DNA of 64,000 bases from Elusimicrobiota bacterium (GTDB lineage Bacteria > Elusimicrobiota > Elusimicrobia > FEN-1173). A program made the translations under genes and the position numbers. The stretch spans positions 5,276 to 69,275 of the forward strand of contig JADKIY010000007.1 in the NCBI GenBank assembly GCA_016722575.1, given 5' to 3'. The notes below the pieces were generated by a model. The model did no database searches. It had not been told where the DNA came from and worked only from the letters and a program-made list of their open reading frames with translations. Each line of letters opens with the position of its first letter. Position 1 is the first letter of the stretch. Below are positions 2,497 through 64,000 of this stretch, in pieces.

Positions 2497-4097
2497 ATGT
2501 ATAGTATTGCCCCGGAACCTTCTGTCATTTCCTCCGTCACCAAGTGCGCTATCTACACCCGCGTTTCGACGGATTTACAGGCGGAAGTTGTGTTTAACTC
2601 CTGCGAAGCCCAGGAGGACCGCATCCGTTCTTTCATCGCCAGCCAAGCCGGTTTCGAAGTGGTTAAAGTTTATTCCGATCCCGGCTACAGCGGAGCAAAC
2701 ACGGAGCGTCCTGGGCTTCGGCAAATGGTCGACGACATTCGGGTTGGGCTCATCAAAATGGTGATCTCCTATAAAATCGACCGCCTGACCCGCTCGCCCA
2801 AAGATTTCTACGACCTCATTGAACTTTTTGAAGCCCACGGGGCATCCTTTATTTCCGTCACGGAACGCTTTGACACGTCGACGCCGTCGGGCCGACTTTT
2901 GCGCAATATCATGCTGACCTTTGCTCAGTTCGAACGCGAGCTGATTTCCGAGCGCGTTCGTGACAAGTTGATCCAGCGGGTTAAGCGCGGTCTCCATGGG
3001 GTTGGTTCGCCGCCCTTTGGTTATGTGAAGAATGAGAAGGGTGTCCTGGTTTTTGATTCTCCGCGCGACGCGCACGTGGGGCTGATTTTTGAAACTTATC
3101 TCAAGACTCGCTCGATCCGCGCCATTCTCAAAACCCTTCGGGGAAAAGGAATCCTTTCCCGAAAAGGGAAACCTTTTTGCGATTCGGCCATTTGGAACCT
3201 GTTAAGGAACCAGGTTTACACGGGCAAGATTGTCCACCGGGGACCACTTATCCCGGTCAACATGAGCCCATCGTTAGCCCGGAGCTGTTTAACGATGTCC
3301 AACGCTTGATGGCCGAATCCCCTCGTCAGACGGCCAATCCCGATAACCACTTGCCCTTCGCCGGGATTGTCCGCTGCCAGGAGTGTGGAAGCGCCATGAG
3401 CGTCGCGTTCACCAACAAACAGAACAAAGGGGGGAAGAAGAAATATTTTTACTACCGGTGCGGCAGCGTGGGGCACAAAGGCAAAGACGCTTGCCGCACC
3501 AAACAGATCGGTGCGGATCGTTTGCACGACATGGTCTATAAAAACCTGATCCGCCTTTCGGTTGATGGGGAAAACCTGAAAAATCTCGTGTTTTCGCTGA
3601 AAAATCAAACCCGTGGAGAGTCTGGAGAGGGATTTGAACCGTTACAAGATTTACAACGTTTGACGCCCCAAAACCTTCAAAAAGACCTTACGGCATATAT
3701 AAAAACATGTGCGCGCAAAACCGGGATTGAAAAAGTGTATGCGGTGCGGCGGGGGATTCGGCGGATTCACTATTCCAAAAGGAGCGTCCGCGTGGACTAC
3801 GCCTTCGGTTCCTTCCCAGGTGGCAAAAGCGGACGGGACACGTCCCCAATGGGCGCAAATGGCGGTGTTTCTTCCGACGACGTTAGCGAATTTCGGAGCG
3901 ACTCCCACCCCGTCGCGCGGAGCGCGTTCGATCAGACCAATTCCACCCCTTTGGTTGGGAATTTGGGAGTGGGACGACCCGGCTCGGACGGTTTGGGACA
4001 GAATTCGATCAAAACAAAAAAGCCCAGCGGAGGGAATCCGTTGGGCTCTTTTGCCACAGTTTGTGATTTCACAAATGGCGGAAGGGGAGGGATTTGA
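2497..4097 (+). CDS. Large serine recombinase, interrupted by one frameshift in a G-run at 3239-3242; C-terminal limit uncertain
   Basis: The N-terminus has the resolvase catalytic core (AIYTRVSTD, SYKIDRLTRS, FAQFERELISERV). After the shift the sequence continues TTYPGQHEPIVSPELFNDVQ, then a zinc ribbon (CQECGS...YYRCG). Adding one G restores ...KIVHRGTTYPGQHEP.... The open frame runs through IR-R into the tRNA. Confidence 0.8.
3624..3650 (-). other. tRNA-Ser T-arm-like fragment inside the recombinase coding region
   Basis: GGAGAGGGATTTGAACCGTTACAAGAT compared with the genuine GGGGAGGGATTTGAACCCTCGAGGAT at 4084-4109 (about 22/27 identical by eye, same orientation). Confidence 0.3.
3726..4083. 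repeat. Inverted repeat, right arm (IR-R)
   Basis: It is the reverse complement of 1968-2318. It includes the recombinase C-terminal codons, the terminator hairpin at 4022-4046, and the last 8 nt of tRNA-Ser. Confidence 0.85.
4011..4052. terminator. Bidirectional rho-independent terminator between the recombinase and tRNA-Ser
   Basis: A 10-bp stem GCCCAGCGGA/TCCGTTGGGC (one G-U pair) with loop GGGAA is flanked by an A-rich run upstream and a T-rich run (TCTTTT) downstream. Confidence 0.6.
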
Positions 4098-4165
4098 ACC
4101 CTCGAGGATCTTGCGACCCTACACGATTTCCAGTCGTGCCGATTCAGCCGCTCTCGCACCCTTCC
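4076..4165 (-). tRNA. tRNA-Ser (anticodon GGA), class II with a long variable arm and encoded CCA
   Basis: Hand-folded: acceptor GGAAGGG/CCCTTCC, anticodon arm CACGA-CTGGAAA-TCGTG, T-arm GAGGG-TTCAAAT-CCCTC, discriminator G, then CCA. Confidence 0.9.
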
Positions 4166-13446: not shown

Positions 13447-15045
13447 GTGAACGCCGAGTCTGCCGTGGCCGACGCCGCCGACCAAAGGCTTTACCCCTCC
13501 CCCGAACCCCTGGTTCGGCTGGCCAACGCGTTCCACGACCCTTTAAACAACGCCGTGGCCACCGCGCGGACCTGCTATTCCCCCCGGGTGATCACCGCCG
13601 AGGAAGTGGGCCGGGACGAAAAATCCCGGGCCCAGCGGGACGCCATCGCCGACAGCACCTACAAAGCCGGGCACCACACCACCCTGCAGCACGCCACCTT
13701 TCAATTCGTCCTGGAGCGGGTGTCCCGCCAATTCATTTGGTCGTTCCTGCACAGCCATCCCTTTTACAATTCCGAGCAGGTGAGCCAGCGTTACGTCACC
13801 GTGGGGCCCGACACGTTGGTGACGCCGCCCTTGGCCGGCCGGGCCCTGGACCTCTACCGAGAGACGGCCGCCCGGCAGATGGACGCCTACCTTCGATTGA
13901 CCGACCTGCTCCGTCCCGCGGTCGAGCGGGAATACAAAAAGATCTTTCCCCTGCGCAACCCGGCCGAAAAACCCTGGGCCAAGTTCGTCCAACGCAAAGC
14001 CCAGGAGGTGGCCCGCTACGTGTTGCCGGTGGCCACCCACGCGCACCTCTACCACACCGTGAGCGGGTTGACCCTCCATCGCTACCACCGAATTTGCCAA
14101 AGCTTCGACACCCCGCTGGAGCAACGGGTCGTCGTGGGCAAAATGATCGACGCCGTGCGGGCGGTGGACCCCGCCTTTGTCGACCGCATGGAAGACCCGA
14201 TCCCCCTGGACCAAACGCCCGAATACCGGTGCTTCCAGGAATTCCACGGGTCGGCGTCCCCCGCCCGGGCGTTCCTGAAAGAATTCGATCTTCGTTTGGG
14301 CGGTTTGAGCTCCAAAATGGTGGACCACAAAGCCAACGGCGAAGCCGTCTTGGCCCAGGCGGTGCGGTCGGTCCTGGGCGTGCCCCGGGCGGCCTTGTCC
14401 GACGACGACGCCATCGACCGCGTGTTGAACCCGGCCCGGAACCCCTATTTGTCCGAAGCCCTCAACCTGGGCGGTCACGCGAAACTGCTCCGCACCATGG
14501 TCCACATGCATTTCACCTTCGCCAAGAAGATTTCCCACACGGCGGACAGCCAGGACCAGCGCCACCGGATGACCCCGGCCTCCCGCCCCGTGCTTTCGGG
14601 CCACTTCGTGCCCGACACGCCCGATTTCATCACGCCGGAATTGATCCGCCATTCCCCGGAGGCCCAGGCCTTTTACGAGGGGAATCTCACGGCCCTCTGG
14701 GGCAAGATCGGGGAATTGCTGAACCTGGGCGTGTCCCGGGAAGACGCCCTCTATCTTCTGCCCAACGCCGTCAGCGTCCGGTTCGAGGAATCCGGCGATT
14801 TGTTGAATTTCCACCACAAATGGACCAAACGGTTGTGCTACACCGCCCAGGAAGAAATCTGGCGGACGTCCAAGGAAGAAGTGGATCAGCTGGCCCGGGT
14901 GGCCCCGCGCGTCGCGCGGCACCTGGGCGCCCCCTGCGCGCTCCGCGCGGCGGCGGGCGTCCGTCCCTTCTGCCCCGAGGGCGATCGGTTTTGCGGGGTG
15001 CTCGTTTGGAAAAAACCCGTCGCGGCTTACGAAAGGATTCTGTAA
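13447..15045 (+). CDS. thyX: FAD-dependent thymidylate synthase ThyX, long (~530 aa) two-lobed form
   Basis: ThyX-like elements HHTTLQH, SEQVSQRY and QRHRM. The length matches my memory of the long ThyX forms. It is followed directly by purA. Confidence 0.6.
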   Translation: MNAESAVADAADQRLYPSPEPLVRLANAFHDPLNNAVATARTCYSPRVITAEEVGRDEKSRAQRDAIADSTYKAGHHTTLQHATFQFVLERVSRQFIWSFLHSHPFYNSEQVSQRYVTVGPDTLVTPPLAGRALDLYRETAARQMDAYLRLTDLLRPAVEREYKKIFPLRNPAEKPWAKFVQRKAQEVARYVLPVATHAHLYHTVSGLTLHRYHRICQSFDTPLEQRVVVGKMIDAVRAVDPAFVDRMEDPIPLDQTPEYRCFQEFHGSASPARAFLKEFDLRLGGLSSKMVDHKANGEAVLAQAVRSVLGVPRAALSDDDAIDRVLNPARNPYLSEALNLGGHAKLLRTMVHMHFTFAKKISHTADSQDQRHRMTPASRPVLSGHFVPDTPDFITPELIRHSPEAQAFYEGNLTALWGKIGELLNLGVSREDALYLLPNAVSVRFEESGDLLNFHHKWTKRLCYTAQEEIWRTSKEEVDQLARVAPRVARHLGAPCALRAAAGVRPFCPEGDRFCGVLVWKKPVAAYERIL

Positions 15046-17449
<2,404 letters not shown>

Positions 17450-17453
<4 letters not shown>

Positions 17454-19063
17454 ACAAAGCGGCGGTCCTCCTGGTTCTGGCCTTGGGCGCGGCGCCGGCC
17501 GCGGCGGCGGTGTCGACGGACACCGTGGCCGCTTCCGTGGCCGTTTCGTCTTCCGTGTTTATGCAGACCGGGGTGGCCATCGATACCCGGAACAACGTCC
17601 ATTTGGTTTACGTGGACACGGCCACCTTGACCTTGAAATACGCCCAACTGGCCAACGGAACGACGACCTGGACCCTCTCCAGCGTATCGGCCGCCCAAGT
17701 CGGTCCCCAATGCGCCCTGGCCCTGGAGGGCGGGTTGTCCCCCCACGTGGTCTATTACCAAACGAACGGCACCCCGGCGGTGATGCACGGCCGGCTGAGC
17801 GGCGGTTCCTGGTCCACCGACACGGTGGAGGCCTTCACGGGCACGAACACCTTTGTCTCCATCGCGGTGGGCGCCGATCGGAATCCCCGGGTGGCCTACT
17901 ACAACAGCGTTTCCTCTTCCACGGTCTTCGGCGCCCGGAGCGCCGGGGTGTGGAGCACGTTCACCGTGGTGACGAGCACTTTCGGCGGCCCGGTGGACCT
18001 GGCCCTGACCTCCGCCGACAGCGCCCGGATCGCTTTGGTGAACGGGTCGACCGTCACGAGCTTCCGGGAATTGTCCTACGCCCGGCAAACCGGCCCATCG
18101 GCCTTCTCGGTTTCCACCCCGTTTTTCATCGGAACGGACACCACCACGCTGGGGGGCCTGGCCCTCGCCCTGGACAGCCTGGGCCAGGCGCACGTGGCCG
18201 TCTACGACACCTTCAGCGACGGCTTGGACTACGTCGAATTCGACGCCGCGGGGAGCACCATCGCGGCCGTCGTCGTGGATTCCGGCCCCGGCACGGGTTT
18301 TTTCTGCGACATCGCGGTCAATTCCGCGGACGACCCGCGAATCGTTTATTTTTCCACCGCCGGGTTGAAAACAGCGACCCGGAGCGGTTCCTGGGCCCCA
18401 ACGGTTTTGGACACGGGGACGGTGGTGGGCGTGGGCGCCGCCCTCGCGTTCAATCGGTTCGATCACTATCTCGCCGGTTACTTGAACGCGGACCTTTCGG
18501 AAGCCAAGTTTTTGACCGACGCGATCCGAAACTTGTCCATTGCCGGGACCGTGTTGGATTTCTCTTTCGCCCCCATCCCGGGGGTGACGTTGTCCCTGTC
18601 GGGGAACATCGCTTCCACGGCCGTTTCCATTTCCTCGGTGACCGGGGCCTATTCGGCCGACCACCTGTTTGAGGGGACCTACGGGATGGCGCCCACGTTG
18701 GCCGGCTACTCCTTTCAGCCCACGGGGCGGTCCTACAGCGTCTTGCAGTCCAGCCAAGCGGGACAAAACTATCAAGGCGGACCGGTCTCGGTGAGCACGG
18801 TGGGAAATCTTTTCAATCCCTTGGCGGGGGAATCGGCGACGCTCAATTTTTCGGTCGTGCCGGGCCGCGTTTTTGCCGGGGTGTATACCCTTCAGGGGCG
18901 GCCGGTCAAAACCTTGTTGGACGAGGACAAATCCGCCGGCAATTACAGCGTGACCTGGGACGGCCGCACTTCGGACGGCGACGTGGTGGCCAGCGGGATT
19001 TACCTGGTGCGGTTTGAAACCGACGCGCTGAAAAAGATCGTGAAAATGGCGGTGGTGAAGTAA
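17450..19063 (+). CDS. Secreted repeat protein with a CarboxypepD_reg-like domain and a FlgD-Ig/T9SS-type C-terminal domain
   Basis: ATGA overlap with the carA stop. Signal peptide MNKAAVLLVLALGAAPAAAA. Reiterated ..V.Y......L.Y......W.. units. C-terminus NLFNPLAGESATLNFSV...GIYLVRFETDALKKIVKMAVVK. Confidence 0.65.
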
Positions 19064-19064
19064 C

Positions 19065-20033
19065 ATGCGGCGCGTCGCGCTTTGGGCCGTCGTTCTGGCG
19101 CTCGGCGCCTCCCGGGTTTGGGGGGCTTCCGATCCCCGAACGGCCGGGAATTCGCTTTTGGAAACCGCCGACGCCCGGGTGACGGGTCTTTCCGGAGCCG
19201 CGACGGCTCTCACGGGGGACGTGGGGGTCTCGGCCGTCAATCCCGCCGCCGTGCCCACCCTGGTGGGCGCCGAAATCTCAACCCAATTCGAGTCCGCGCC
19301 GGGCGACGTTCGAACGGGCTTGGCCAGTTTCGGCCGTGGGAACGGGCGCGCGGGCTGGGCGCTCACGGCGGTTTATTTCGATGCCGGAAAAATCGATATT
19401 GTGCCGGTGAGCGGGTCGCCGTACACCCGCCGGGCCCAGCAGGACCTGGTGGGCGCCCTCACGGGCGGGTTTACCCTCGGGGAAAGCCTCCGACTGGGGG
19501 TGGCCGCCAAAGTCCTTTCCTCGACCTTGGTGGGCGACTATCACGCCGCGGCCTTCGCCGGGGACGGCGGGTTTCAGTGGGACCTGTCGAAACATCTCGC
19601 CCTGGGAGCGGCCGTGACGAACGCGGGGTCCGAATTGACCTACCGGGACCAGGGCGATCCCCTGCCCACGGAGTACCGGGCCGGGGCGGCCTTGAAGTTC
19701 GAGATGGGAAGCGGCGACGAGTCCGATAATACGGACGCGCCGTGGTACACGAAGGTCCGGTCGGATAAAAACTATTTGACGATCACCGGCGACGCGATCA
19801 CCGACCGTTTCGGCGGTGTGACGGGGGCGGTCGGCCTGGAATGGGATTACGCCCACCGGGCGATTCTGCGGGGCGGCGCGCGGGTGGGGCAAGCGGGCGA
19901 CAGCTTTTCGGCCGGACTCGGTTTTTGGATGAAGGGGGGACGGCTGGATTACTCCTTCCAGGCGGTGGGGGATTTGCCGGACCGCCACCGCGTGACCGTG
20001 TCGTGGTTTTGGAAAAAGAAATCGGAACAATAA
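19065..20033 (+). CDS. PorV/PorQ-like outer-membrane beta-barrel protein
   Basis: It has a signal peptide. The N-terminal motif LLETADARVTGLSGAATALTGDVGVSAVNPAAV resembles the PorV-family signature, and the rest has an alternating beta-strand pattern. Confidence 0.55.
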   Translation: MRRVALWAVVLALGASRVWGASDPRTAGNSLLETADARVTGLSGAATALTGDVGVSAVNPAAVPTLVGAEISTQFESAPGDVRTGLASFGRGNGRAGWALTAVYFDAGKIDIVPVSGSPYTRRAQQDLVGALTGGFTLGESLRLGVAAKVLSSTLVGDYHAAAFAGDGGFQWDLSKHLALGAAVTNAGSELTYRDQGDPLPTEYRAGAALKFEMGSGDESDNTDAPWYTKVRSDKNYLTITGDAITDRFGGVTGAVGLEWDYAHRAILRGGARVGQAGDSFSAGLGFWMKGGRLDYSFQAVGDLPDRHRVTVSWFWKKKSEQ

Positions 20034-20263: not shown

Positions 20264-23587
<3,324 letters not shown>

Positions 23588-54756: not shown

Positions 54757-55467
54757 ATGACCGATCATTCGACGCGCTACCGTGTGGTTTTGGCGGACGA
54801 TCATCCGTTGCTGCGGGAATCCATCGCTACTTTTATCGAGGACCACGCGGCCGATCGATTGCAGGTGGTCGCCCAGGCGGCCGATGGGTTGGGAGCCCTC
54901 GAGGCCGTTCAAAAGCACGAACCGCACCTGGTCCTCCTGGATCTCTCCATGCCGCGTTTGGGCGGGCTGGAGGCCATCGGACGGTTGCGGGCCCTGGGCA
55001 AACCCCTGTTGATCCTGGTGCTCTCCAGTTACGACGATCAGGCCCACATCCTCGACGCCATTCGGGCGGGGGCCGACGATTACCTCTTCAAAAAATACGC
55101 AACGGCGGAAGTCGTCGTGGGAAACATCCTCCGAGCGTTGGGCGAACGGCCCTTGTCCCGGGTGGGGACCTTCCAGAAATTGATCCAGTCGGTGCGGGAC
55201 GCCGGATTGACGGTGGTGGAGGGCGCCGAGGGGGTGCTGACCGGGCTGGATCTTGAAATTTTGAAAAAGGTGGCCTTCGACGGGGCCTCCAACGCGGAAA
55301 TCGTCGCGGACTTGGCCCGAAACGGCGCCCCGCTATCGGAAGAAGCCGTCGCCAAGAAACTGGCGCAGGTGATCGAAAAGCTGGGGGCCCGAACGGCCGC
55401 CCACGCCGTCTGTTTGGCGATCAAAAACAATCAGCTGAGCGCCGACGACGCCCGACGGGCGGGCTAG
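54757..55467 (+). CDS. NarL/FixJ-type response regulator (receiver + LuxR-type HTH)
   Basis: VVLADDHPLLRE, LLDLSMPRLGG and the C-terminal HTH LTGLDLEILKKVAFDGASNAEIVADL...TAAHAVCLAIKN. Confidence 0.8.
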   Translation: MTDHSTRYRVVLADDHPLLRESIATFIEDHAADRLQVVAQAADGLGALEAVQKHEPHLVLLDLSMPRLGGLEAIGRLRALGKPLLILVLSSYDDQAHILDAIRAGADDYLFKKYATAEVVVGNILRALGERPLSRVGTFQKLIQSVRDAGLTVVEGAEGVLTGLDLEILKKVAFDGASNAEIVADLARNGAPLSEEAVAKKLAQVIEKLGARTAAHAVCLAIKNNQLSADDARRAG

Positions 55468-57173
55468 CGGGGCGGCGGGGGCCGGGGGCTCTCGTCGTCC
55501 GCGGCCGCGGGGAAAAGCAGGGTGAGGGTCGTTCCCCGGCCTTCCGCGCTCGCGATGTCGACTCGCCCGCCGTGTTGGTCCATGACTTTCTTGATCACCA
55601 GCAGGCCCAGCCCCGAACCGGTTTCCTTGGTCGTCGTTTCTTCAAAAAGGTGTCGGCGCTTTTCCTCCGGAAACCCCGCCCCGTTGTCCCGAACCCAGAT
55701 CGCCACCCCCTCCGCGCGCGTTTCGGTCCCGATGACCACCTCCCCCTGGCTCCCAATGGCCTCCAGGGCATTTTTGGCCGCGTTTAAGAGCGCCTTGCGG
55801 GCTTCGCTTTCCTCCATCCAAGCCAGGGGGGCGGGCGACGCCAGGAGGGTGGTGAGCCGGCAACCGTCGGGCGGGCGCAATTTGGGGACCAGGCGTTGAA
55901 CGAAATGATTGGCGTTGGTTTTTTTGGCGTTCAGGGGCCGGTCCCGGCCGATGGTCAAAATATCCTCGATGAAATCCTCCATCCAATCCAACGTTTCGTA
56001 ACTCAATAAAAAGTGCTTCGCCGCCTGGGCGTCGGGTTCGTTGACGTGGGACAAGATCGCGGCCAGGGAGTTGCGAAGGGCCTGGACCAGCTGGCGCAAA
56101 TCGTGGCCGATGAAGCGCGTCATGCGGCCGAGCACCGAGTCCCGGGCCCTTTTTTCCAATATGGGTTGGGCGTCTTTGAGCAAATGGGCCAGGTCGCCCA
56201 GCTCGTCGTGGGATTGAATGGTGATCAGGGACCCGAAGTGTCCGGTGGTCCACCGTTGGACCGCGTCCATGAATTGGTGCAGGGACTTGGTGATGAAAAC
56301 GCCGAAGAAAACGGCCAACAAAACGGCGAATCCGGTGGCGAAGGCCAGCGAACGCCAAACGCGGCGGCGCACTTTGTCCGCCACCGCCAGGGCGGTCGCC
56401 CGGGGTCGTTCAAACACCACCCACCCCTTGAGGCCCCGAAGCGGTTTCTTGACGCCCAGAACCCGGGAGCCGTCTTCCCGCTTGTACTCCCCCTGGGTCC
56501 ACCGCGGGTCGGTCCAGGGCGCGGGGGCGCGGGGGGGGCGCTCGGGCTTGTCGTCGTTGGATTCGGCCCAGGGCGCCCCCTGGGGGTCCAGGAGGTAGGC
56601 TTTTCCGCCCGCCCCTTCGGCCAAGGTGCCCAGGGATTGCGCGAGGACGAACAAGTTAAGACGCGCGACCAAATAGCCTTCAATGTTATTGGCGGGGGAC
56701 AGGATCGGGACGCAGGTCAGCAACCGGGGATGGGAGGGCGGGACGATTTGCACGCGCCCCAGGAACACCCCGTCTCTGTCCACCGCGGCGCGAAGACGCG
56801 GCCATTCGCTGGACGACACCGGCCGTCCTTTTTTAAAGCGGTGCAGGGCGTGGAGGAGCCGTCCCGCCCGGTCGTGGACCCACAAGTCCGTTAAAATCGG
56901 TTGGGTGTTGAGGGCGGACCCGAGCGTCCGGCTCACCACCGCCCCGGGGGATCGCACGGACAGGTTTCGTCCCATGCCCGTTAGGAGATTGACGGCCGCG
57001 TCGATCTGGCCGTTGACCATGTCCACGGTCCGATCGGCGAGGCCGCTTTGGATTTGAAAGCTGGACGCGGTGAGCGAACGGCTCACCTCCCGTTCCAACC
57101 GAAAGCCGAGCCACCCCAGGGGAACCCAGGCGATGACCAACGACACGAAGATGAATTTTTGCCAGAGCCGCAC
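55464..57173 (-). CDS. Sensor histidine kinase with a periplasmic sensor domain and HAMP
   Basis: Two TM segments, the H-box region FIGHDLRQLV, and HATPase_c motifs VRDNGAGF and GSGLGLLVIKKVMDQHGGRV. Confidence 0.8.
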   Translation of the reverse strand: MRLWQKFIFVSLVIAWVPLGWLGFRLEREVSRSLTASSFQIQSGLADRTVDMVNGQIDAAVNLLTGMGRNLSVRSPGAVVSRTLGSALNTQPILTDLWVHDRAGRLLHALHRFKKGRPVSSSEWPRLRAAVDRDGVFLGRVQIVPPSHPRLLTCVPILSPANNIEGYLVARLNLFVLAQSLGTLAEGAGGKAYLLDPQGAPWAESNDDKPERPPRAPAPWTDPRWTQGEYKREDGSRVLGVKKPLRGLKGWVVFERPRATALAVADKVRRRVWRSLAFATGFAVLLAVFFGVFITKSLHQFMDAVQRWTTGHFGSLITIQSHDELGDLAHLLKDAQPILEKRARDSVLGRMTRFIGHDLRQLVQALRNSLAAILSHVNEPDAQAAKHFLLSYETLDWMEDFIEDILTIGRDRPLNAKKTNANHFVQRLVPKLRPPDGCRLTTLLASPAPLAWMEESEARKALLNAAKNALEAIGSQGEVVIGTETRAEGVAIWVRDNGAGFPEEKRRHLFEETTTKETGSGLGLLVIKKVMDQHGGRVDIASAEGRGTTLTLLFPAAADDESPRPPPPR

Positions 57174-57175
57174 GT

Positions 57176-58444
57176 TTATTCGGGCTCGAGGAAGGAAACC
57201 ACCGCTTTTTGCGCGGATCCCCCTCGGTCGGAATCCCGAGGGCTGCGGGCGACGGTTTTAACGCGTCCGGGGTCGATCCCGTAATCCCGCACCAGAACGT
57301 ATTTGATCCGTTGCGCCCGGGCGGCGGCCAAGGACTCGGCGTTGTTTTCCCGCTCCTCGGCCATCCCTTCGATCAAAGCCAATTGTTCGGGAAAGGCGCG
57401 GAGGTTGTTGGCCAGCTGCCGCACTTCCAGCTGAGCGGCCCCGGCCAAATCGCTGGAGTTTCGTCGGAAATGCAATTCCTGCGCCCATTGCCGGTTGGGC
57501 GGCGGTTCCGGGGCTTCGTCCCGGGGGGCGGGTTTTCCCCGGCCGGCGCTTTTGGGCCCGAGGAGGACGAATCCTTCGCTGTCGGTGAGCGCGCCCCCGG
57601 TCCAGGGAAAAGCCGTCAAGAAGGCCCGGTAAGTCCCCGGGCGGGCGGGATTCCCGTGGGCGCCGAGCCCGTCCCAGTCCAAAGTCGCCGCCAGTTCACG
57701 GGTGCCGGAAAAGGTCCGCATCAATCGCCCGGATTTCATTTCCACCAAACGGACCGACCAGCGTCGGATGCGCAGGGGTTCAAAGAGAAAAAGGGAAACC
57801 GAAACCCGGGTCTCTCCGTCGGGAGACACGGGCCCCGGGGCCGTGTGAACGTGCACGGTGGGGCCCTCCGTTTCACTTTTCCGCAACGGCGGTTTGACGG
57901 GTTGTATGGCCAGCCGAAATCCTTCAAAACCCTCGGCGGTCCCGCTGGCGAACCGAAGGTAAAAGGAAGCCGGCGGCAGGGAGAGGGGGAGAAACACCTC
58001 GGCCCCAAGACGGAAGGCCTGCAAGGAGCGCTTTCGATCCTTTTCGGTGGAGCGGGCCGGGCGGACGATGGTCACCCCCACGGCCGCGTCCGGAAACGTG
58101 AGGGCGTAGTCCCGGCAAAGGGCCAGGAGGGTCCGGGCGCGATCGGTCAAGGCTTCCCCGTCGTTGGCGAACAGCGATTCCGAATACAGCGCCAGCGACG
58201 CGCCCCCGCCCCGACGATCCACGCGGAGTCCGGAATAGAAATTGTCCATTTTCGAAAGGAGGGATTCCCGGTTCTTGGTCAGTTCGTCGGTTTTGACGGC
58301 GTTGTCGACGGGCCCGGGCGAAGAGGGGTCCGCCGCGACGGACCGTCCTCCGGCGCGGGCCGCCCCGGCGGCGGGGGCGGCCGACGCGGGCCCCCGGACG
58401 GAGGCCATCAGCATGAACAAGAACAGCGCGCGGTGTCGGATCAC
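57176..58444 (-). CDS. Secreted protein with a FlgD-Ig-like middle domain and an OmpA-like C-terminal domain
   Basis: I chose the GTG 58444 start (V)IRHRALFLFMLMASV as a signal peptide. It has DWDGLGAHGNPARPGTYRAFL and the C-terminus FRRNSSDL...AQRIKYVLVRDYGIDPGRV. The upstream part of the 619-aa track ORF looks non-coding. Confidence 0.6.
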   Translation of the reverse strand: MIRHRALFLFMLMASVRGPASAAPAAGAARAGGRSVAADPSSPGPVDNAVKTDELTKNRESLLSKMDNFYSGLRVDRRGGGASLALYSESLFANDGEALTDRARTLLALCRDYALTFPDAAVGVTIVRPARSTEKDRKRSLQAFRLGAEVFLPLSLPPASFYLRFASGTAEGFEGFRLAIQPVKPPLRKSETEGPTVHVHTAPGPVSPDGETRVSVSLFLFEPLRIRRWSVRLVEMKSGRLMRTFSGTRELAATLDWDGLGAHGNPARPGTYRAFLTAFPWTGGALTDSEGFVLLGPKSAGRGKPAPRDEAPEPPPNRQWAQELHFRRNSSDLAGAAQLEVRQLANNLRAFPEQLALIEGMAEERENNAESLAAARAQRIKYVLVRDYGIDPGRVKTVARSPRDSDRGGSAQKAVVSFLEPE

Positions 58445-58591
58445 AGAGTGGGTCCTTTGGGTTCCTCCTCCAAGTGTACTGCTCCCCCGGAAAATTGCAA
58501 GGACCCCCTTGAATATCCGTTCGGGGATGCCCATACTGGGGGGGGCCGTCCCGGGGGGTTTCCGGCGGCCACTTTTTGCGACGCGAGGTCG

Positions 58592-59788
58592 ATGGTGAAA
58601 GTCAAAGTGGGTCCCGAGCACGTCAGCCGGTTGCGCGATGGGTTGATGCGGCAATTGTTGCGCGCCCGCCTGGAAGGGAGGTCCGAACCCGAAAAGCTGC
58701 TGGAAATCGGTCGAGGGGAATTCGCCGAAGAACTCATCCGGCAAATTCCCCACCTGACGGTTTCCGCCCACGACCCCGCCCTTCGGACCGACGCCGACGT
58801 GGTCCGCCCTTTCCCCTACCCGGCCCACACGTTCGACGCGGTGTTCGCCGAGGAAGTCCTCGTGGGGTTCGATCACTTCTACCACTTGTTGGGTGAAATC
58901 GCCCGCGTGCTGCGCCCGGGCGGTGTGTTGTTCCTTTGGGATCTGAAAGCCCGCCTGCACGAATGGACGGTCCCGGAACTGATCGGCCTGCTGAAGCCGC
59001 CGCCTCCCCCGCCGCCGGCGTCGCCTCTGGACCAAGCGACGTTAAACGAGAAGCTTCACCGGGTCGAAGCGATTCCGGATTCCACGGTGGGCGTGTTCAC
59101 CTTTAAAATCGCCAAGACGCCGGTCGAACGGATGTCGATTCATCGCCTTCGCCACGCGGTCTACGTGGAAGAGATGGGTTGGGAACGGGACAACCCCGAA
59201 CACCCCGGTCTGGAAATGGACGAGATGGACCCCGTGTCCGTCCTTCTCGGGGCCTACACCTCGGACGGGGAGGCGGTCTCCACCATCCGACTGATCCTGC
59301 CTCTCGGCAAAAACCTTCCCTTTCAGAAGTATCCGGGGGGCGTCGGGGTCGCCCCGCCCGCCCCCGAGCGCATGGCCGAATTGTCGCGATTCACCACGAA
59401 GAAGGATTTCCGTCGACGGGGATCCGACGGCTTGTTTGCGCCGCTTCACGACGCGGCGACTTCCGGGGAGTCCTCCGCCGGGGTGGCGTCGGAGCGGTTG
59501 CTGATCGTCCTCGGATTGTTTCGATTGGTGTTTGAAGTCAGCGGGGTGTTGGGCCTGTCCCATTGGTTCGCTCACATGGAGAAGCGGCTGGCCCACAGCC
59601 TGAAGCGGTTGGGACTCTTTTTTGAGGAAGTGGGGCCGGAGGTCGTCTGGCCGGATTGCCGTCGACGGTTGACCTACCGCGGAGACATCGAATCGATGCA
59701 CCACCGCTGCCTGGCCCATTCCAGCGAATTGGTGGAACTCTTGACGGGACGAAAAGCCTTGGCCCCGAAACCCGGAGGTCCCGTTTGA
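58592..59788 (+). CDS. Fusion protein: class I methyltransferase-like domain, poly-Pro linker, then a LuxI-like/N-acyl amino acid synthase-like acyltransferase domain
   Basis: ATG 58592. N-terminal LLEIGRGEF...FDAVFAEEVL...LRPGGVLFL, linker KPPPPPPPASP, C-terminal IHRLRHAVYVEEMGWE...STIRLILP...AELSRFTT...GLSHWFAHMEKRLAHSLKRLG. Confidence 0.65.
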   Translation: MVKVKVGPEHVSRLRDGLMRQLLRARLEGRSEPEKLLEIGRGEFAEELIRQIPHLTVSAHDPALRTDADVVRPFPYPAHTFDAVFAEEVLVGFDHFYHLLGEIARVLRPGGVLFLWDLKARLHEWTVPELIGLLKPPPPPPPASPLDQATLNEKLHRVEAIPDSTVGVFTFKIAKTPVERMSIHRLRHAVYVEEMGWERDNPEHPGLEMDEMDPVSVLLGAYTSDGEAVSTIRLILPLGKNLPFQKYPGGVGVAPPAPERMAELSRFTTKKDFRRRGSDGLFAPLHDAATSGESSAGVASERLLIVLGLFRLVFEVSGVLGLSHWFAHMEKRLAHSLKRLGLFFEEVGPEVVWPDCRRRLTYRGDIESMHHRCLAHSSELVELLTGRKALAPKPGGPV

Positions 59789-60660
59789 CGGGCGGAGCGG
59801 GGTTCTCGCGCGACGCGGCGTTTTCCCGAACCCTCGGGTGGGTGACGGCCCCCGAGTTGGAGCGGTTAAGGACCGCCCGGGTGGCCGTGGCCGGCCTGGG
59901 GGGGGTGGGGGGCGGGCACGTCCTGGCCTTGGCGCGCCTCGGCGTCGGGCGGCTCGCGCTCGCCGATTTCGACCGTTTTGAAATTCACAACTTCAACCGC
60001 CAGTCCGGCGCCTTTTGCTCCACCGTCGGCCAAACCAAGCTCGAGGTCCTCTCCCGAATGGCCCGGGACATCAATCCGGAAATGGACCTGCGGGCGTTCC
60101 CCGACGGGGTCACCGAAACCAACGTGGACGCCTTTTTGGACGGGGTGGATCTTTACATCGACGGGCTCGATTTTTTTCAATTGGAAATACGGCGAAAGGT
60201 CTTTGCGGCCTGCCGGGCCCGCGGAATCCCGGCCGTGACCGCCGCCCCCCTGGGATTTGGAACGGCGATGATCACGTTCCTGCCGGACGGGATGAGTTTT
60301 GAATCCTATTTCCGACTGGAGGGTCGTTCGGAGCCCGAGCGCTACGCCCGCTTCTTGGTGGGTCTGTCCCCGGCTCTCCTTCACATCAAATACCTCGTGG
60401 ATCCGTTGGCGGTCGACTTTGCCCAACGGCGGGGCCCTTCCACCGGGGTCGCTTGCGAGCTTTGTTCCGCGGTGGCGGTCGCCCAAGCTCTGAAATTATT
60501 GCTGAAGCGCGGACCCGTCCGCGGCGCCCCCTGGATCCTCCAGTTCGACGCCTACCGCCAAGTGGCCCGCTGGTCCTACCGGCCCGGGGGAAACGCGAAC
60601 CCCCTGCAACGGCTTCTCATCCATCTGATTCAACGGCGACTCAAGGCGAAGGCGTTTTGA
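59785..60660 (+). CDS. ThiF/MoeB/HesA-family adenylyltransferase-like protein
   Basis: The TTG 59785 start forms a TTGA overlap with the upstream stop. It has VAVAGLGGVGGGHVLALARLGVGRLALADFDRFEIHNFNRQ. Confidence 0.7.
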   Translation: MTGGAGFSRDAAFSRTLGWVTAPELERLRTARVAVAGLGGVGGGHVLALARLGVGRLALADFDRFEIHNFNRQSGAFCSTVGQTKLEVLSRMARDINPEMDLRAFPDGVTETNVDAFLDGVDLYIDGLDFFQLEIRRKVFAACRARGIPAVTAAPLGFGTAMITFLPDGMSFESYFRLEGRSEPERYARFLVGLSPALLHIKYLVDPLAVDFAQRRGPSTGVACELCSAVAVAQALKLLLKRGPVRGAPWILQFDAYRQVARWSYRPGGNANPLQRLLIHLIQRRLKAKAF

Positions 60661-61733
60661 CCGGGCGCGGCGCGATCGATCAAGTGTTGGAGCGGGCCCG
60701 TTGGGCCCCCTCCGGCGACAACACCCAGCCGTGGCGTTTTGAGCGGGTTTCCCCCGATTCCGTTCGGATCGTCGTCCGCGACACGCGCCGCCATTGCGTG
60801 TACGATCTGGACGGTCGTCCGACCCAGTTGTCCGCCGGCGCGTTGCTCGAATCGATGTTTTTGGCCGCCGGCGCCATCGGTCGTCGGTTGGAATGGAAGC
60901 GACTGCCCTCCGGCACGGAGGAGCGCACGGTGTTGGAGGTCCGTTTGGGGGGGGCGTCGGAAAGCCCGCCCGACCCCCTTCACGCGTATCTGGAAACCCG
61001 GTCGGTTCAGCGCGGGCTCCTCCGCCCCCGTCGGCTGACCTCGGCGGAAAAAAGCCGGATTGAAAGCGCGGTGGGGGCGGACCACCGCGTCGTTTGGCTG
61101 GAGTCGGCGGTTTCCCGGTGGCGAACCGCCGTTCTGCTGTGGCGTGTGGCGCATTTTCGTCTGAGCCTCCCCGAAGCCTACGACGTGCACCGGGACGTCA
61201 TTGAATGGGGGGCCGAGGTCAGCGAAGACCGGATGCCCGACCGATCGATCGTCTCCAACGCCGCTTTGCGGTGGGCCATGCGTTTCGTCCTTAAGAGTGC
61301 GGCGCGCGTGCGGTGGTTCAACCGTTGGCTGGGGGGGGCCTGGTCCCCGGGTTTCTTGATGGATTTCCTGCCCCAGTTGGCCTGCGGCGCCCAGGTTCTT
61401 CTCCTCGCCGAACGGCCGCCGTCGACGGTGGACGATTTCCTGGAATCGGGCCGGGCGGTTCAGCGTTTTTGGCTGGCCGTTACGCGGGAAGGGCTCTGGC
61501 ACCAACCGGCTTACACGCCGATCCAATTCAATCGATACCTCCGCGAAGGCCGCGCGTTTACGGCCGACGGGGCTGTGGAGAAGCTGGCGCGCCGGTTGAA
61601 CGCCGCCTACGAACGCTGGTTGCCGACCGATCCGGCCCGGGTGGTCTGGTTGGGGCGCGTGGGGGCGGGGTCGGGGCCCCGTTTCCGTTCCCTCCGAATT
61701 CCCCTCGAACGACTCTGGAGTTCCCCGGCCTGA
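60657..61733 (+). CDS. Tandem-nitroreductase-fold protein (Acg-family FMN-binding oxidoreductase-like)
   Basis: The TTG 60657 start forms a TTGA overlap. RWAPSGDNTQPWRF is a nitroreductase signature. The ~358-aa two-lobe length fits. Confidence 0.6.
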   Translation: MTGRGAIDQVLERARWAPSGDNTQPWRFERVSPDSVRIVVRDTRRHCVYDLDGRPTQLSAGALLESMFLAAGAIGRRLEWKRLPSGTEERTVLEVRLGGASESPPDPLHAYLETRSVQRGLLRPRRLTSAEKSRIESAVGADHRVVWLESAVSRWRTAVLLWRVAHFRLSLPEAYDVHRDVIEWGAEVSEDRMPDRSIVSNAALRWAMRFVLKSAARVRWFNRWLGGAWSPGFLMDFLPQLACGAQVLLLAERPPSTVDDFLESGRAVQRFWLAVTREGLWHQPAYTPIQFNRYLREGRAFTADGAVEKLARRLNAAYERWLPTDPARVVWLGRVGAGSGPRFRSLRIPLERLWSSPA

Positions 61734-61741
61734 AAACCCTC

Positions 61742-62923
61742 TTGTTTGTGGCCGAAGGCGCCACTTTGAGCCACATCGCGCGGCCCCTGGCCTTGATCCG
61801 CGGCCTGGACCGTTCCCGATACCGACCCCTCATCGCCTGCGCTCCCTGGCACGCGAAATGGGTCCGGGCCGAGGGCCTGGACCCGTTGCCGCTCGACTGC
61901 CGCTCGAGCGAGGAATTCCTGCGGGCCCTGGAGACCGGACGGCCGGTCTTCGACCTGGACACCCTTCGGCGGTACGTGCAAAACGACCTCCGCCTCCTGG
62001 GCCGCCACCGGCCGGACCTCGTGATCGGCGATTTCCGACTTTCGCTCTCCGTGAGCGCGCGCCGCGCTCGCGTGCCCTACGCCGCGCTCGCCAACGCCCA
62101 CTGGAGCCCCGCCGGCGGGCCGCGGCCTTGGATTCGACCGGTGTTGTCGGGCTGGAATTGGCTGCCGTCCGCCGTGCTCGACGTCGTCGGCCGGGCGGCG
62201 TGGCCTCTCGTTGAGCGGCTTCACGCCGCCCCGCTGAACCGGCTTCGGCGGGAAAACGGGATGGCCCCGCTGAAGCCCGATTTGAGGTGGATTTATACGG
62301 AGGCGGACCACGTCCTCTACGCCGATCCGCCCGCCCTTTACCCCGATCTTCGGTGCCCGGACCGCCACCGGTTCCTGGGCGCGGTGCTGTGGTCTCCCGA
62401 GAAGAATCCGGCCCCGGGCCCCCGTCCGGGCCGGGAGGGCGAGCGCGTCTACGTCGCTCTCGGGAGCTCGGGCAGCCCGGGTTCGTTGGACCCTTTGCTG
62501 CGGGCGCTCGAGGAATGGCCCTGCACGGCCGTCGTCTCCACCGCGGGGGGGCCGGCCCCCTCCGGTTTTCCTCGGGCGCAATTCGCTCCCTATTGGGACG
62601 GGGGGGAACAATCCGCCGGCGCGCGTTTGGTCGTTTGCAACGGCGGCGCCGGAGCGGTTCATCAGGCGCTGGCGGTGGGCGTCCCGGTCCTCGCGGTGTG
62701 CCGGAATCTGGATCAACTGTTGTGCATGCGCGCGGTGGAAGCGGCGGGAGCGGGGCGGGTCCTTCGGGAAGATCGATTGACGGTTCAACGGATCAAGGCC
62801 GCTCTGCGCGAAATTTGGGAAAACCCGAAAATGCGGGCCGCGGCGGGGCGCCAGTCCGCCGGAATCTCCGTTCGAGAAACCGACGCGCGGTTCGGCGCGT
62901 TCCTGGAAGAGATTTTTCGTTAA
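61742..62923 (+). CDS. GT1-family (MGT/UDP-glycosyltransferase-like) glycosyltransferase; start ambiguous (CTG 61730, TTG 61742 or GTG 61748)
   Basis: N-terminus (K)TLLFVAEGATLSHIARPLALI. C-terminal nucleotide-sugar motif VVCNGGAGAVHQALAVGVPVLAV. Confidence 0.65.
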   Translation: MFVAEGATLSHIARPLALIRGLDRSRYRPLIACAPWHAKWVRAEGLDPLPLDCRSSEEFLRALETGRPVFDLDTLRRYVQNDLRLLGRHRPDLVIGDFRLSLSVSARRARVPYAALANAHWSPAGGPRPWIRPVLSGWNWLPSAVLDVVGRAAWPLVERLHAAPLNRLRRENGMAPLKPDLRWIYTEADHVLYADPPALYPDLRCPDRHRFLGAVLWSPEKNPAPGPRPGREGERVYVALGSSGSPGSLDPLLRALEEWPCTAVVSTAGGPAPSGFPRAQFAPYWDGGEQSAGARLVVCNGGAGAVHQALAVGVPVLAVCRNLDQLLCMRAVEAAGAGRVLREDRLTVQRIKAALREIWENPKMRAAAGRQSAGISVRETDARFGAFLEEIFR

Positions 62924-62932
62924 GCGGGGCGG

Positions 62933-64000
62933 TTAGAAGAAAAAGCGAATGGTCAGATACGCTTGGTCCGCGGCGTCGTAGAATCCCGCGGCCGAACTGG
63001 GGGGGCCGCCGTAAAGGTCCACGCCGGTTTCAAGCGTCACGTTGGGAATGTAATAAACGGTGACGGCCGGATTTTGGTAGTAACTTTTGTCCGCAAAATC
63101 ATAAAACCCCCGGAACGTCGGTCGAACATGGCCGCCGAACATTTCAAAGCGCAATTCCCCGCTCAACTGGGTGGTTCGCGGGTGAAGCGGGGCCAGGGTG
63201 GGATCGAAGTTCTGAATGAAAATTTGTTGCACGGCCACGTTGAGATAGCTTTTGGCCGGTCCGTTGTAGTCCACGCCGACCAAGTAACGGAGCTCGGGTT
63301 TCCGGACCTCCGTCAAGGCGGCGGAAATGTAGCTTTGACTGGACACGTAGGCCACGTCGCCTCTTAACCCCAGATCGCCCAGAACCGTTTCAAACTCCGC
63401 CCCCCAAACCTCTTCCCGAACATACCGCAGTCGAATCTTTTGGCCCGAAACGACGGCCCACTGGACCATGTCTTCCAGGGTGGGGGATCGGCCGGGCGAC
63501 GGCGGGGGGGGGATGGCAAAACCGCGAAGCGTCGGAAGATCGCGGTAGCGCGACAGATAGCTGAACGCCAGGTCGACCCGCCACAGGGAACCGGAAATTT
63601 TGACGCCTCCCGCGGCGTCGCGGAGCGTTTTGGGCCGCTCCTCCAGCGCCACGGGCAAGGGCCCGTAACGCCGCTCCAGGTGACCGAACAGCGCCCAGTC
63701 GCTCCCGTACAGCTGGATTTCGGAAGGCGTAAAGTAGGGGATGTAAATGCCTTGAACGGAAACGGCGTCCGAGTGGATGTCCAATTTGGCCATGGGCACG
63801 GGAATTTTCCGGTCGGCGCGGTCCCGGGTGAGACCCAGGCGGAGATCCTCGGGGTTCAGGTTGTCCAGGGGGCTCTGTTCGTCGGACTTGCCCCAGCGGA
63901 CGATTTGATTCCCGATCCGCAGGCCCAGATGGTCGGAGGTGAAATTGGCGTAGATGTTGTAGGGGCGCGCTTTGCCTTCCTGGATCCACTCGCCGGCGAC
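62933..64000 (-). CDS. Outer-membrane beta-barrel protein (DUF1302-like); the 5' end lies outside the window
   Basis: The frame is open to nt 64000. The N-terminal part has LRIGNQIVRWGKSDEQSPLDNLNPED. The C-terminus ends ...AYLTIRFFF, an aromatic OMP terminus. Confidence 0.6.
   Translation of the reverse strand, partial: VAGEWIQEGKARPYNIYANFTSDHLGLRIGNQIVRWGKSDEQSPLDNLNPEDLRLGLTRDRADRKIPVPMAKLDIHSDAVSVQGIYIPYFTPSEIQLYGSDWALFGHLERRYGPLPVALEERPKTLRDAAGGVKISGSLWRVDLAFSYLSRYRDLPTLRGFAIPPPPSPGRSPTLEDMVQWAVVSGQKIRLRYVREEVWGAEFETVLGDLGLRGDVAYVSSQSYISAALTEVRKPELRYLVGVDYNGPAKSYLNVAVQQIFIQNFDPTLAPLHPRTTQLSGELRFEMFGGHVRPTFRGFYDFADKSYYQNPAVTVYYIPNVTLETGVDLYGGPPSSAAGFYDAADQAYLTIRFFF

Follow-up and report, generated by a model that had tools for sequence, protein, structure and literature searches.

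What might a compact four-gene operon of an Elusimicrobiota bacterium make, and does its enzyme set match any pathway already described? We examined a stretch of 64,000 nucleotides from a metagenome-assembled genome (contig JADKIY010000007.1; hereafter the window), in which four genes on the + strand occupy positions 58592-62923, as read from the sequence. [quoted passage not shown] An earlier reading of this DNA, the original prediction, had proposed that the genes form a translationally coupled operon whose product is an N-acyl small molecule, and had named no described pathway with this enzyme set. The operon for such a molecule is supported in outline. The other claim does not stand, as three of the four genes represent a cluster type that is already characterised, the biochemically reconstituted acyl-oxazolone pathway (OxzAB, TyzABC, TrzAS). 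We estimate a probability of about 0.72 that the product of the operon is a tailored N-acyl aromatic-amino-acid lipid belonging to the acyl-oxazolone or N-acyl-dehydroamino-acid class.

Gene 1 extends from an ATG at 58592 to a TGA at 59786-59788 (398 amino acids), and a GAGG motif lies 4-8 nucleotides before its start (58584-58588). Gene 2 extends from a TTG at 59785 to a TGA at 60658-60660 (291 amino acids), gene 3 from a TTG at 60657 to a TGA at 61731-61733 (358 amino acids), and gene 4 from a TTG at 61742 or a GTG at 61748 to 62923 (about 393 amino acids). TTGA stop/start overlaps join gene 1 to gene 2 (59785-59788) and gene 2 to gene 3 (60657-60660), while the junction of genes 3 and 4 reads CTGA...TTG at 61730-61744, with gene 4 starting 8 nucleotides after gene 3; the genes, their strand and these junctions were all as originally described. 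Gene 1 is called as one product in public assemblies (P0121), the same 291-residue product of gene 2 appears in an independent public gene call (P0001), and in near-identical metagenomic contigs the public calls yield identical 398- and 291-residue products; public contigs searched for an exact copy of the product of gene 3 returned none. The + strand frames are supported by GC content at the codon positions (0.77-0.80 at the third and 0.44-0.55 at the second). Third-position GC resembles that of neighbouring genes, and recent horizontal transfer was rejected, the operon GC of 0.662 being no outlier against 0.632 ± 0.024 in windows of the same size. The 147 nucleotides between the divergent upstream gene and gene 1 (58445-58591) are the presumed promoter region. 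A promoter scan found no sigma-70-like site there and reported one promoter-like site, on the wrong strand; terminator-like hairpins numbered 16 against a shuffled expectation of 10.3 ± 3.5, which is no clear excess.

Three enzyme systems define the pathway to which we compared these genes. In Pseudoalteromonas rubra and four other Proteobacteria, OxzA, an N-acyltransferase, and OxzB, a fusion of ThiF and nitroreductase, produce N-acyl tyrazolones and phenazolones, and De Rond, Asay and Moore reconstituted OxzAB in vitro with ATP in 2020-21 (bioRxiv 10.1101/2020.06.11.147165). Mycobacterium tuberculosis makes C12:0-tyrazolone with TyzA, TyzB and TyzC (Rv2336, Rv2338c and Rv2337c), which are an acyltransferase of FeeM/BjaI-like structure, a ThiF homologue acting as an ATP-dependent cyclase, and a flavin-dependent oxidase whose lid is Acg-like and which carries out an O2-dependent desaturation (Grigg et al., 2023; PMC10404671). 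The same organism makes N-acyl tryptazolones with TrzA and TrzS (Rv1356c and Rv1355c); variants D217A and R540A showed that TrzS depends on two residues, Asp217 in the adenylation motif of ThiF and Arg540 in the oxidase, and cyclisation was found to come before desaturation (Kleetz et al., 2025; PMC12856293). Sauer et al. described the same trio in producers of stieleriacine, kyonggic acid and thalassotalic acid, with an adjoining methyltransferase in Stieleria (PMC12479983).

Three long models describe ThiF-nitroreductase fusions, namely PRK14851, PRK14852 and the Rv1355c (TrzS) family, and the proteins of genes 2 and 3 match their respective halves. In the last of these, gene 2 matched the ThiF half with an E-value of 3.7e-21, and amino acids 6-352 of gene 3 aligned with positions 376-716 of the 722 in the model (E-value 1.7e-20). 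Gene 2, which we liken to TyzB and to the ThiF domain of OxzB and TrzS, scored 142 bits with ThiF (PF00899) and 428 bits with the NCBIfam family NF006077/PRK08223, named "hypothetical" (cut-off 266). Its GLGGVGG motif and residues D126 and D129, the two aspartates of YIDGLD, are invariant in an alignment of 22 homologues. The closest solved structure is TcdA (66 bits), in which VIDAID aligns with YIDGLD of gene 2; the adenylation aspartate of gene 2 would correspond to D217 of TrzS, a correspondence inferred and not aligned. Gene 3, likened to TyzC and to the flavin-dependent oxidase domain of OxzB and TrzS, scored 34.9 bits with Nitroreductase (PF00881; cut-off 23.5), and its sole significant solved relative is Acg (2YMV). 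It keeps the flavin-site motif RWAPSGDNTQPWRF and 75 of the 89 positions conserved among cluster-linked homologues.

The NAS domain covers approximately amino acids 165-390 of gene 1 (59084-59761, + strand). Hidden Markov model (HMM) scans matched it to FeeM (33.6 bits, cut-off 27) and Acetyltransf_5 (35.2 bits, cut-off 22.4), and its best curated model is TIGR03694, the exosortase-associated acyltransferase, at 109.6 bits over amino acids 168-386. This is just under the cut-off of 111.95, which proteobacterial NAS homologues pass (145.5 bits in locus L007, for example). The AlphaFold2 model of the domain is mostly confident, with a predicted local distance difference test score (pLDDT) above 90 falling below 50 at amino acids 278-295; Foldseek placed it nearest to the N-acyl-homoserine lactone (AHL) synthases BjaI, TofI and LasI and to FeeM (2G0B). 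Eighteen of the 20 positions conserved in the family are kept. On these matches the C-terminal domain of gene 1 is a FeeM/GNAT-type amino-acid N-acyltransferase encoded together with genes 2 and 3. The scans bore out the domain calls of the original prediction, with a qualification for the other end of the protein.

There, amino acids 1-134 (58592-58993, + strand) had been called a methyltransferase. The Pfam match exists (Methyltransf_11, 33.5 bits, cut-off 21.2); the intact enzyme does not, as what is present of the class I fold is a central fragment only. The match covers positions 49-95 of the 95 in the profile, solved methyltransferases such as MitM align at amino acids 68-120 only, and the glycine-rich motif I (E/DxGxGxG) and the part after beta-5 fall in gaps when compared with canonical enzymes, namely those encoded near the ThiF gene in L084 and six other loci described below. 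The piece thus falls short of a complete class I methyltransferase dependent on S-adenosylmethionine (SAM), with motif I and the C-terminal strands missing. The AlphaFold2 model of this piece has low confidence (pLDDT 34-69), and a word-based search with the piece alone returned zero homologues. It is joined to the rest of the protein by a PPPPPPP linker in the translation (amino acids 135-141; 58994-59014, + strand). In an exhaustive HMMER search of 1.84 billion representatives, no other fusion of a methyltransferase to NAS was found in the best 150 of 859 matches, and the two-stretch matches that we checked were NAS-NAS tandems. The N-terminal piece looks like a degenerate remnant of a neighbouring tailoring gene, although this is not proven, and it is probably non-catalytic. 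We do not claim a triple fusion of NAS, ThiF and oxidase, as gene 1 has no match to the triple-length model PRK14852. Distant NAS relatives (P0122, P0126, P0129, P0130, P0131, P0145, P0175, P0223) include NAS-NAS tandem fusions of 414-536 amino acids, a NAS-HDOD/HD fusion and a SduA_C (Shedu)-NAS fusion.

To see whether these genes keep company elsewhere, we used 80 loci (L003-L082), retrieved through alignment of gene 2 homologues, all from Beta- and Gammaproteobacteria and with 55-65% identity; their open reading frames (ORFs) were called and then searched, both with the proteins of the window and with profiles derived from these loci. The original prediction depended on the genes being conserved together, and the module recurs across these loci. 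A gene 3 homologue lies within 3 kb of the ThiF gene in 52 of them, and in 13 the two form one continuous ORF; one such ThiF-oxidase fusion, in L017, matches from end to end the models PRK08223, PRK14851 and Rv1355c family. NAS is found within 10 kb of the ThiF homologue in 47 loci, and NAS, oxidase and GT1 occur together in 11. The gene order in L036 (NAS, fused ThiF-oxidase, GT1) is that of the window, and Massilia polaris (L082) has NAS, ThiF and oxidase in the order seen in M. kyonggiensis. Genes that may serve export recur as well: LolA-like proteins in 29 loci, LolCE/FtsX-type permeases in 24 and an HAE3/MMPL-like transporter of the resistance-nodulation-division (RND) superfamily in 12.

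The ThiF gene also occurs without an Acg-like oxidase within 3 kb, in 28 of the 80 loci (L006, L009, L012 and L021 among them), where it is still 55-60% identical to the ThiF protein of the window. A stand-alone, canonical class I methyltransferase gene lies near the ThiF gene, in most cases directly upstream, in L084 (7268-7927) and six other loci (L007:7974-8693 on the - strand, L009:9263-9979, L010:9093-9962, L016:9217-9987, L023:6984-7661 and L031:9245-9931), with 58-69% identity among loci. These are mostly loci without an adjoining oxidase gene, and they look like a second, uncharacterised subtype that combines a methyltransferase with ThiF.

That subtype would sit within loci of a particular kind. 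In 51 of the 80 proteobacterial loci (L003:7554-20362, for example), and also in L085:75-16885, the gene for ThiF is embedded in an XrtA/PEP-CTERM exopolysaccharide locus. Matches above equivalog cut-offs in these loci were to PrsT, the XrtA export protein, a chain-length determinant, a tyrosine kinase, the outer-membrane protein of TIGR03016, an ATPase, a deacetylase and the glycosyltransferase stp1. The ORFs of the window that were scanned showed neither families of the XrtA system nor PEP-CTERM tails.

Gene 4 sets the window operon apart from the characterised clusters. It scored 44.9 bits with EryCIII-like_C (PF06722; cut-off 31.7), 34.4 bits with Glyco_tran_28_C (PF04101; cut-off 22) and 43.8 bits with MGT, and its closest solved structures are CalG4 and CalG2. 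It keeps 77 of the 99 positions conserved in 13 cluster-linked relatives, including an N-terminal histidine (H11). GT1 relatives with 38-44% identity lie beside the oxidase or ThiF gene in 16 of the 80 loci, always together with the oxidase, and span Burkholderiales, Rhodocyclales, Hydrogenophilales and Gammaproteobacteria. A further one, in L085, is accompanied in its operon by the oxidase gene and by genes for an ABC transporter, a LolA-like protein and an NDP-sugar epimerase/dehydratase. De Rond et al. devote one sentence to the clustering of some oxzB genes with glycosyltransferases, which they did not study (bioRxiv 10.1101/2020.06.11.147165). We found no characterisation of an oxazolone-linked glycosyltransferase in the literature, and the view of the GT1 step as uncharacterised, taken in the original prediction, was borne out. 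A glycosylated product of the operon is reasonable but unproven; that the phenolic or carboxyl oxygen of the lipid accepts the sugar is a guess.

Architecture, adjacency, gene fusion and HMM homology support the placement of genes 1-3 in the acyl-oxazolone pathway type. By architecture the window is likened to TyzABC: both have three separate proteins, namely a FeeM/AHL-synthase-like acyltransferase, a ThiF-like cyclase and a single-chain Acg-like flavin oxidase. The structural neighbours of TyzA are the same as those of the window NAS domain (PMC10404671), and a lipid-transporter gene adjoins each system (mmpL9 in M. tuberculosis, a DUF1302-like barrel here, RND genes in related loci). Unlike TyzABC, the window genes are translationally coupled on one strand and include GT1 and the methyltransferase-like remnant. 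OxzAB presents the same succession of an acyltransferase followed by ThiF and nitroreductase-fold activities, and the ThiF-oxidase fusions among the related loci resemble OxzB, whereas in the window the two are separate genes with a 4-nucleotide overlap. With TrzAS the window shares the match of genes 2 and 3 to the halves of the Rv1355c model and the conserved aspartates of the adenylation motif; TrzS is a fusion, however, and window scores far under the equivalog cut-off of that model suggest a different subfamily. The candidate clusters for stieleriacine, kyonggic acid and thalassotalic acid are also operon-like, with overlapping ORFs for NAS, ThiF and nitroreductase and, in Stieleria, a methyltransferase adjoining ThiF, but their products are ring-opened N-acyl dehydrotyrosines, they have no glycosyltransferase and their methyltransferases are full-length (PMC12479983). 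The TIGR03694 family of NasY-type N-acyl amino acid synthases provides the best curated model of the NAS domain and its related loci are XrtA loci; the window differs in scoring under the cut-off and in having ORFs without XrtA/PEP-CTERM. TcdA, the tRNA ct6A dehydratase, resembles gene 2 in being ThiF-like and in closing an oxazolone ring with ATP, but its substrate is tRNA and it has no associated oxidase or acyltransferase. The window operon would be a variant of the known pathway, with an extra GT1, a degenerate methyltransferase fusion and an Elusimicrobiota host.

The mechanism that we propose is inferred step by step from homology. The NAS domain, of the OxzA/TyzA/FeeM type, would take a fatty acyl group from acyl-CoA or acyl-ACP and attach it to the alpha-amine of a free amino acid; going by analogy, this would most likely be Tyr, Phe or Trp. 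Gene 2 would adenylate the free carboxylate with ATP, and attack by the amide oxygen would close the 5(4H)-oxazolone ring. Gene 3 would then use O2 to introduce the alpha,beta double bond, giving a conjugated oxazolone or, after hydrolysis, an N-acyl-dehydroamino acid. Gene 4 would add a sugar from an NDP-sugar to form a glycolipid, a step with no characterised precedent, and the DUF1302-like barrel probably helps to bring the hydrophobic product to the outer membrane or across it.

Several observations weigh against this mechanism. No oxazolone was seen in the producers of stieleriacine, kyonggic acid and thalassotalic acid (PMC12479983), and therefore the operon may yield the ring-opened form as its end product. 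Divergence of the NAS domain is high, its best relative beyond its own cluster being 33-38% identical, and amino-acid and acyl specificities are not predictable. The scores with the Rv1355c model were 75 bits for gene 2 and 73 bits for gene 3 against an equivalog cut-off of 476, and gene 3 reached 101.5 bits with the Acg family NF047509, under the cut-off of 199; because of these scores, genes 2 and 3 are homologues of the characterised enzymes and not demonstrated orthologues.

E1-like and FMN dehydrogenase proteins are found in azoline-forming systems, and on this basis the ThiF and nitroreductase-fold proteins might be taken to modify a ribosomal peptide, in the manner of ribosomally synthesised and post-translationally modified peptides or thiazole/oxazole-modified microcins. 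The original prediction had drawn this analogy, which proved misleading: the substrates of the acyl-oxazolone pathway are N-acyl amino acids in free form, and the pathway requires no YcaO and no precursor peptide. No YcaO was found in the operon or among the scanned neighbours. A search of 58445-58591 for a precursor gene found no ORF confined to that gap, all overlapping ORFs extending into flanking genes, which fits the earlier statement that none was evident. With an amino-acid N-acyltransferase in the operon, and with ThiF and oxidase families that are the ones fused in small-molecule oxazolone synthetases, peptide modification is scarcely credible here. A sulfur-carrier role for the ThiF system we likewise consider unlikely. 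The structural likeness of the NAS domain to BjaI, TofI and LasI could instead mean that gene 1 is an AHL-type signal synthase, its SAM-binding remnant reflecting SAM as acyl acceptor, and that the other genes modify the signal. TyzA shares these structural neighbours, yet it is an amino-acid N-acyltransferase (PMC10404671). Moreover, Pfam Autoind_synth was not matched, whereas FeeM, Acetyltransf_5 and TIGR03694 are, the N-terminal domain is without a SAM-binding glycine loop, and the ThiF step requires a free carboxylate, which is absent from a lactone, all of which makes a signal synthase highly improbable.

The chemistry of the ring leads to another question, namely whether the oxazolone is a product at all or a transient activated acyl donor (an azlactone), captured by water, a sugar hydroxyl, exopolysaccharide or protein. 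The role of the pathway would then be lipid attachment at the cell surface, with GT1 supplying or modifying the sugar partner. Oxazolones hydrolyse within hours at pH 8 (bioRxiv 10.1101/2020.06.11.147165), the ThiF gene is present in producers that show only ring-opened dehydrotyrosines (PMC12479983), and in TrzS cyclisation must precede desaturation (PMC12856293). The exopolysaccharide setting of the 51 XrtA/PEP-CTERM loci, with their LolA-like, DUF1302, RND and LolCE-like export genes, points the same way. However, intact acyl-oxazolones build up in Pseudoalteromonas, Colwellia, M. tuberculosis, M. smegmatis and Rhodococcus, the scanned window ORFs yielded no XrtA or PEP-CTERM genes, and no transferase for the capture step was identified. 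Among the rival readings we give a transient donor the most weight, though we regard it as unlikely, and retain the tailored N-acyl aromatic-amino-acid lipid as the preferred reading.

The genes on either side of the operon had been described as cell-envelope genes, and both carry the corresponding domains; recurrence next to the module elsewhere held for one of them. The DUF1302-like outer-membrane barrel (62933-64000, - strand; PF06980, 41.2 bits, cut-off 23.2) is convergent with gene 4, lies 9 nucleotides from the gene 4 stop and has its 5′ end beyond the window. In 23 of the 80 loci such a barrel is encoded no more than 10 kb from the ThiF homologue, and it is probably associated with the operon in export or outer-membrane handling of the lipid. 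The OmpA-like gene (57176-58444, - strand; PF00691, 33.4 bits, cut-off 27.2) is a divergent neighbour not shown to be part of the system: it had no matches in the 80 related loci and is conserved only in the near-identical contigs L001 and L083. Beside it, upstream of the operon (54757-57173), lie genes for a response regulator of the NarL/LuxR type and for a dCache histidine kinase, the latter weakly similar to the XrtA-system kinase PrsK (74 bits against a cut-off of 300). The arrangement of regulator, kinase and OmpA-like gene recurs only in the same two contigs, which are of the same lineage and add context on the upstream side only.

The rest of the scanned window is ordinary chromosome, with genes for pyruvate:ferredoxin oxidoreductase, heptose epimerase, PilT, PEP carboxylase, DnaX and MgtA, as well as PurA (15046-16335) and CarB (20264-23587). 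The last two proteins cluster at 90% identity with proteins of uncultivated Elusimicrobiota, in agreement with the host lineage. Directly before PurA, an ORF of 532 amino acids (13447-15045, + strand) has two stretches that match the 211-position ThyX model and is apparently a duplicated or fused FAD-dependent thymidylate synthase. At 17450-20033 (+ strand) the gene for a 537-residue protein that has FlgD_ig and CarboxypepD_reg-like domains precedes one for an outer-membrane protein of the PorV/PorQ family (99 bits), a type IX secretion-like pair in Elusimicrobiota. ARAGORN reported a tRNA-Ser (GGA) at 4076-4165 (- strand); a scan of the whole window at Rfam gathering thresholds gave zero matches, the tRNA family included.

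The oxazolone pathway has so far been reported from Pseudomonadota, Actinomycetota and Planctomycetota (PMC12479983), and the operon extends its reach to Elusimicrobiota. The conserved subset of the pathway with a dedicated GT1 predicts a glycosylated oxazolone or dehydroamino-acid lipid that has not been described. The physiological role of bacterial acyl-oxazolones is posed as an open question in each of the primary papers (bioRxiv 10.1101/2020.06.11.147165; PMC10404671; PMC12856293). Full-text literature searches found no paper tying oxazolone synthesis to exosortase systems. A 2011 paper by Craig, Cherry and Brady reportedly links NAS genes with exosortase in its title. As a long shot, the acyl-oxazolone, as an azlactone or a glycoside, might be a reactive envelope lipid donor, the lipid partner, long sought, by which exopolysaccharide or exosortase-processed proteins are anchored, and the Elusimicrobiota operon a stand-alone copy of such a lipid-anchor module. 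If true, oxazolones would gain a physiological role, and there would be an explanation for the way in which N-acyl amino acid synthases follow the exosortase system. That the module is embedded in XrtA loci of Proteobacteria may matter more than the operon of the window itself, as it offers a testable functional context in floc or biofilm formation.

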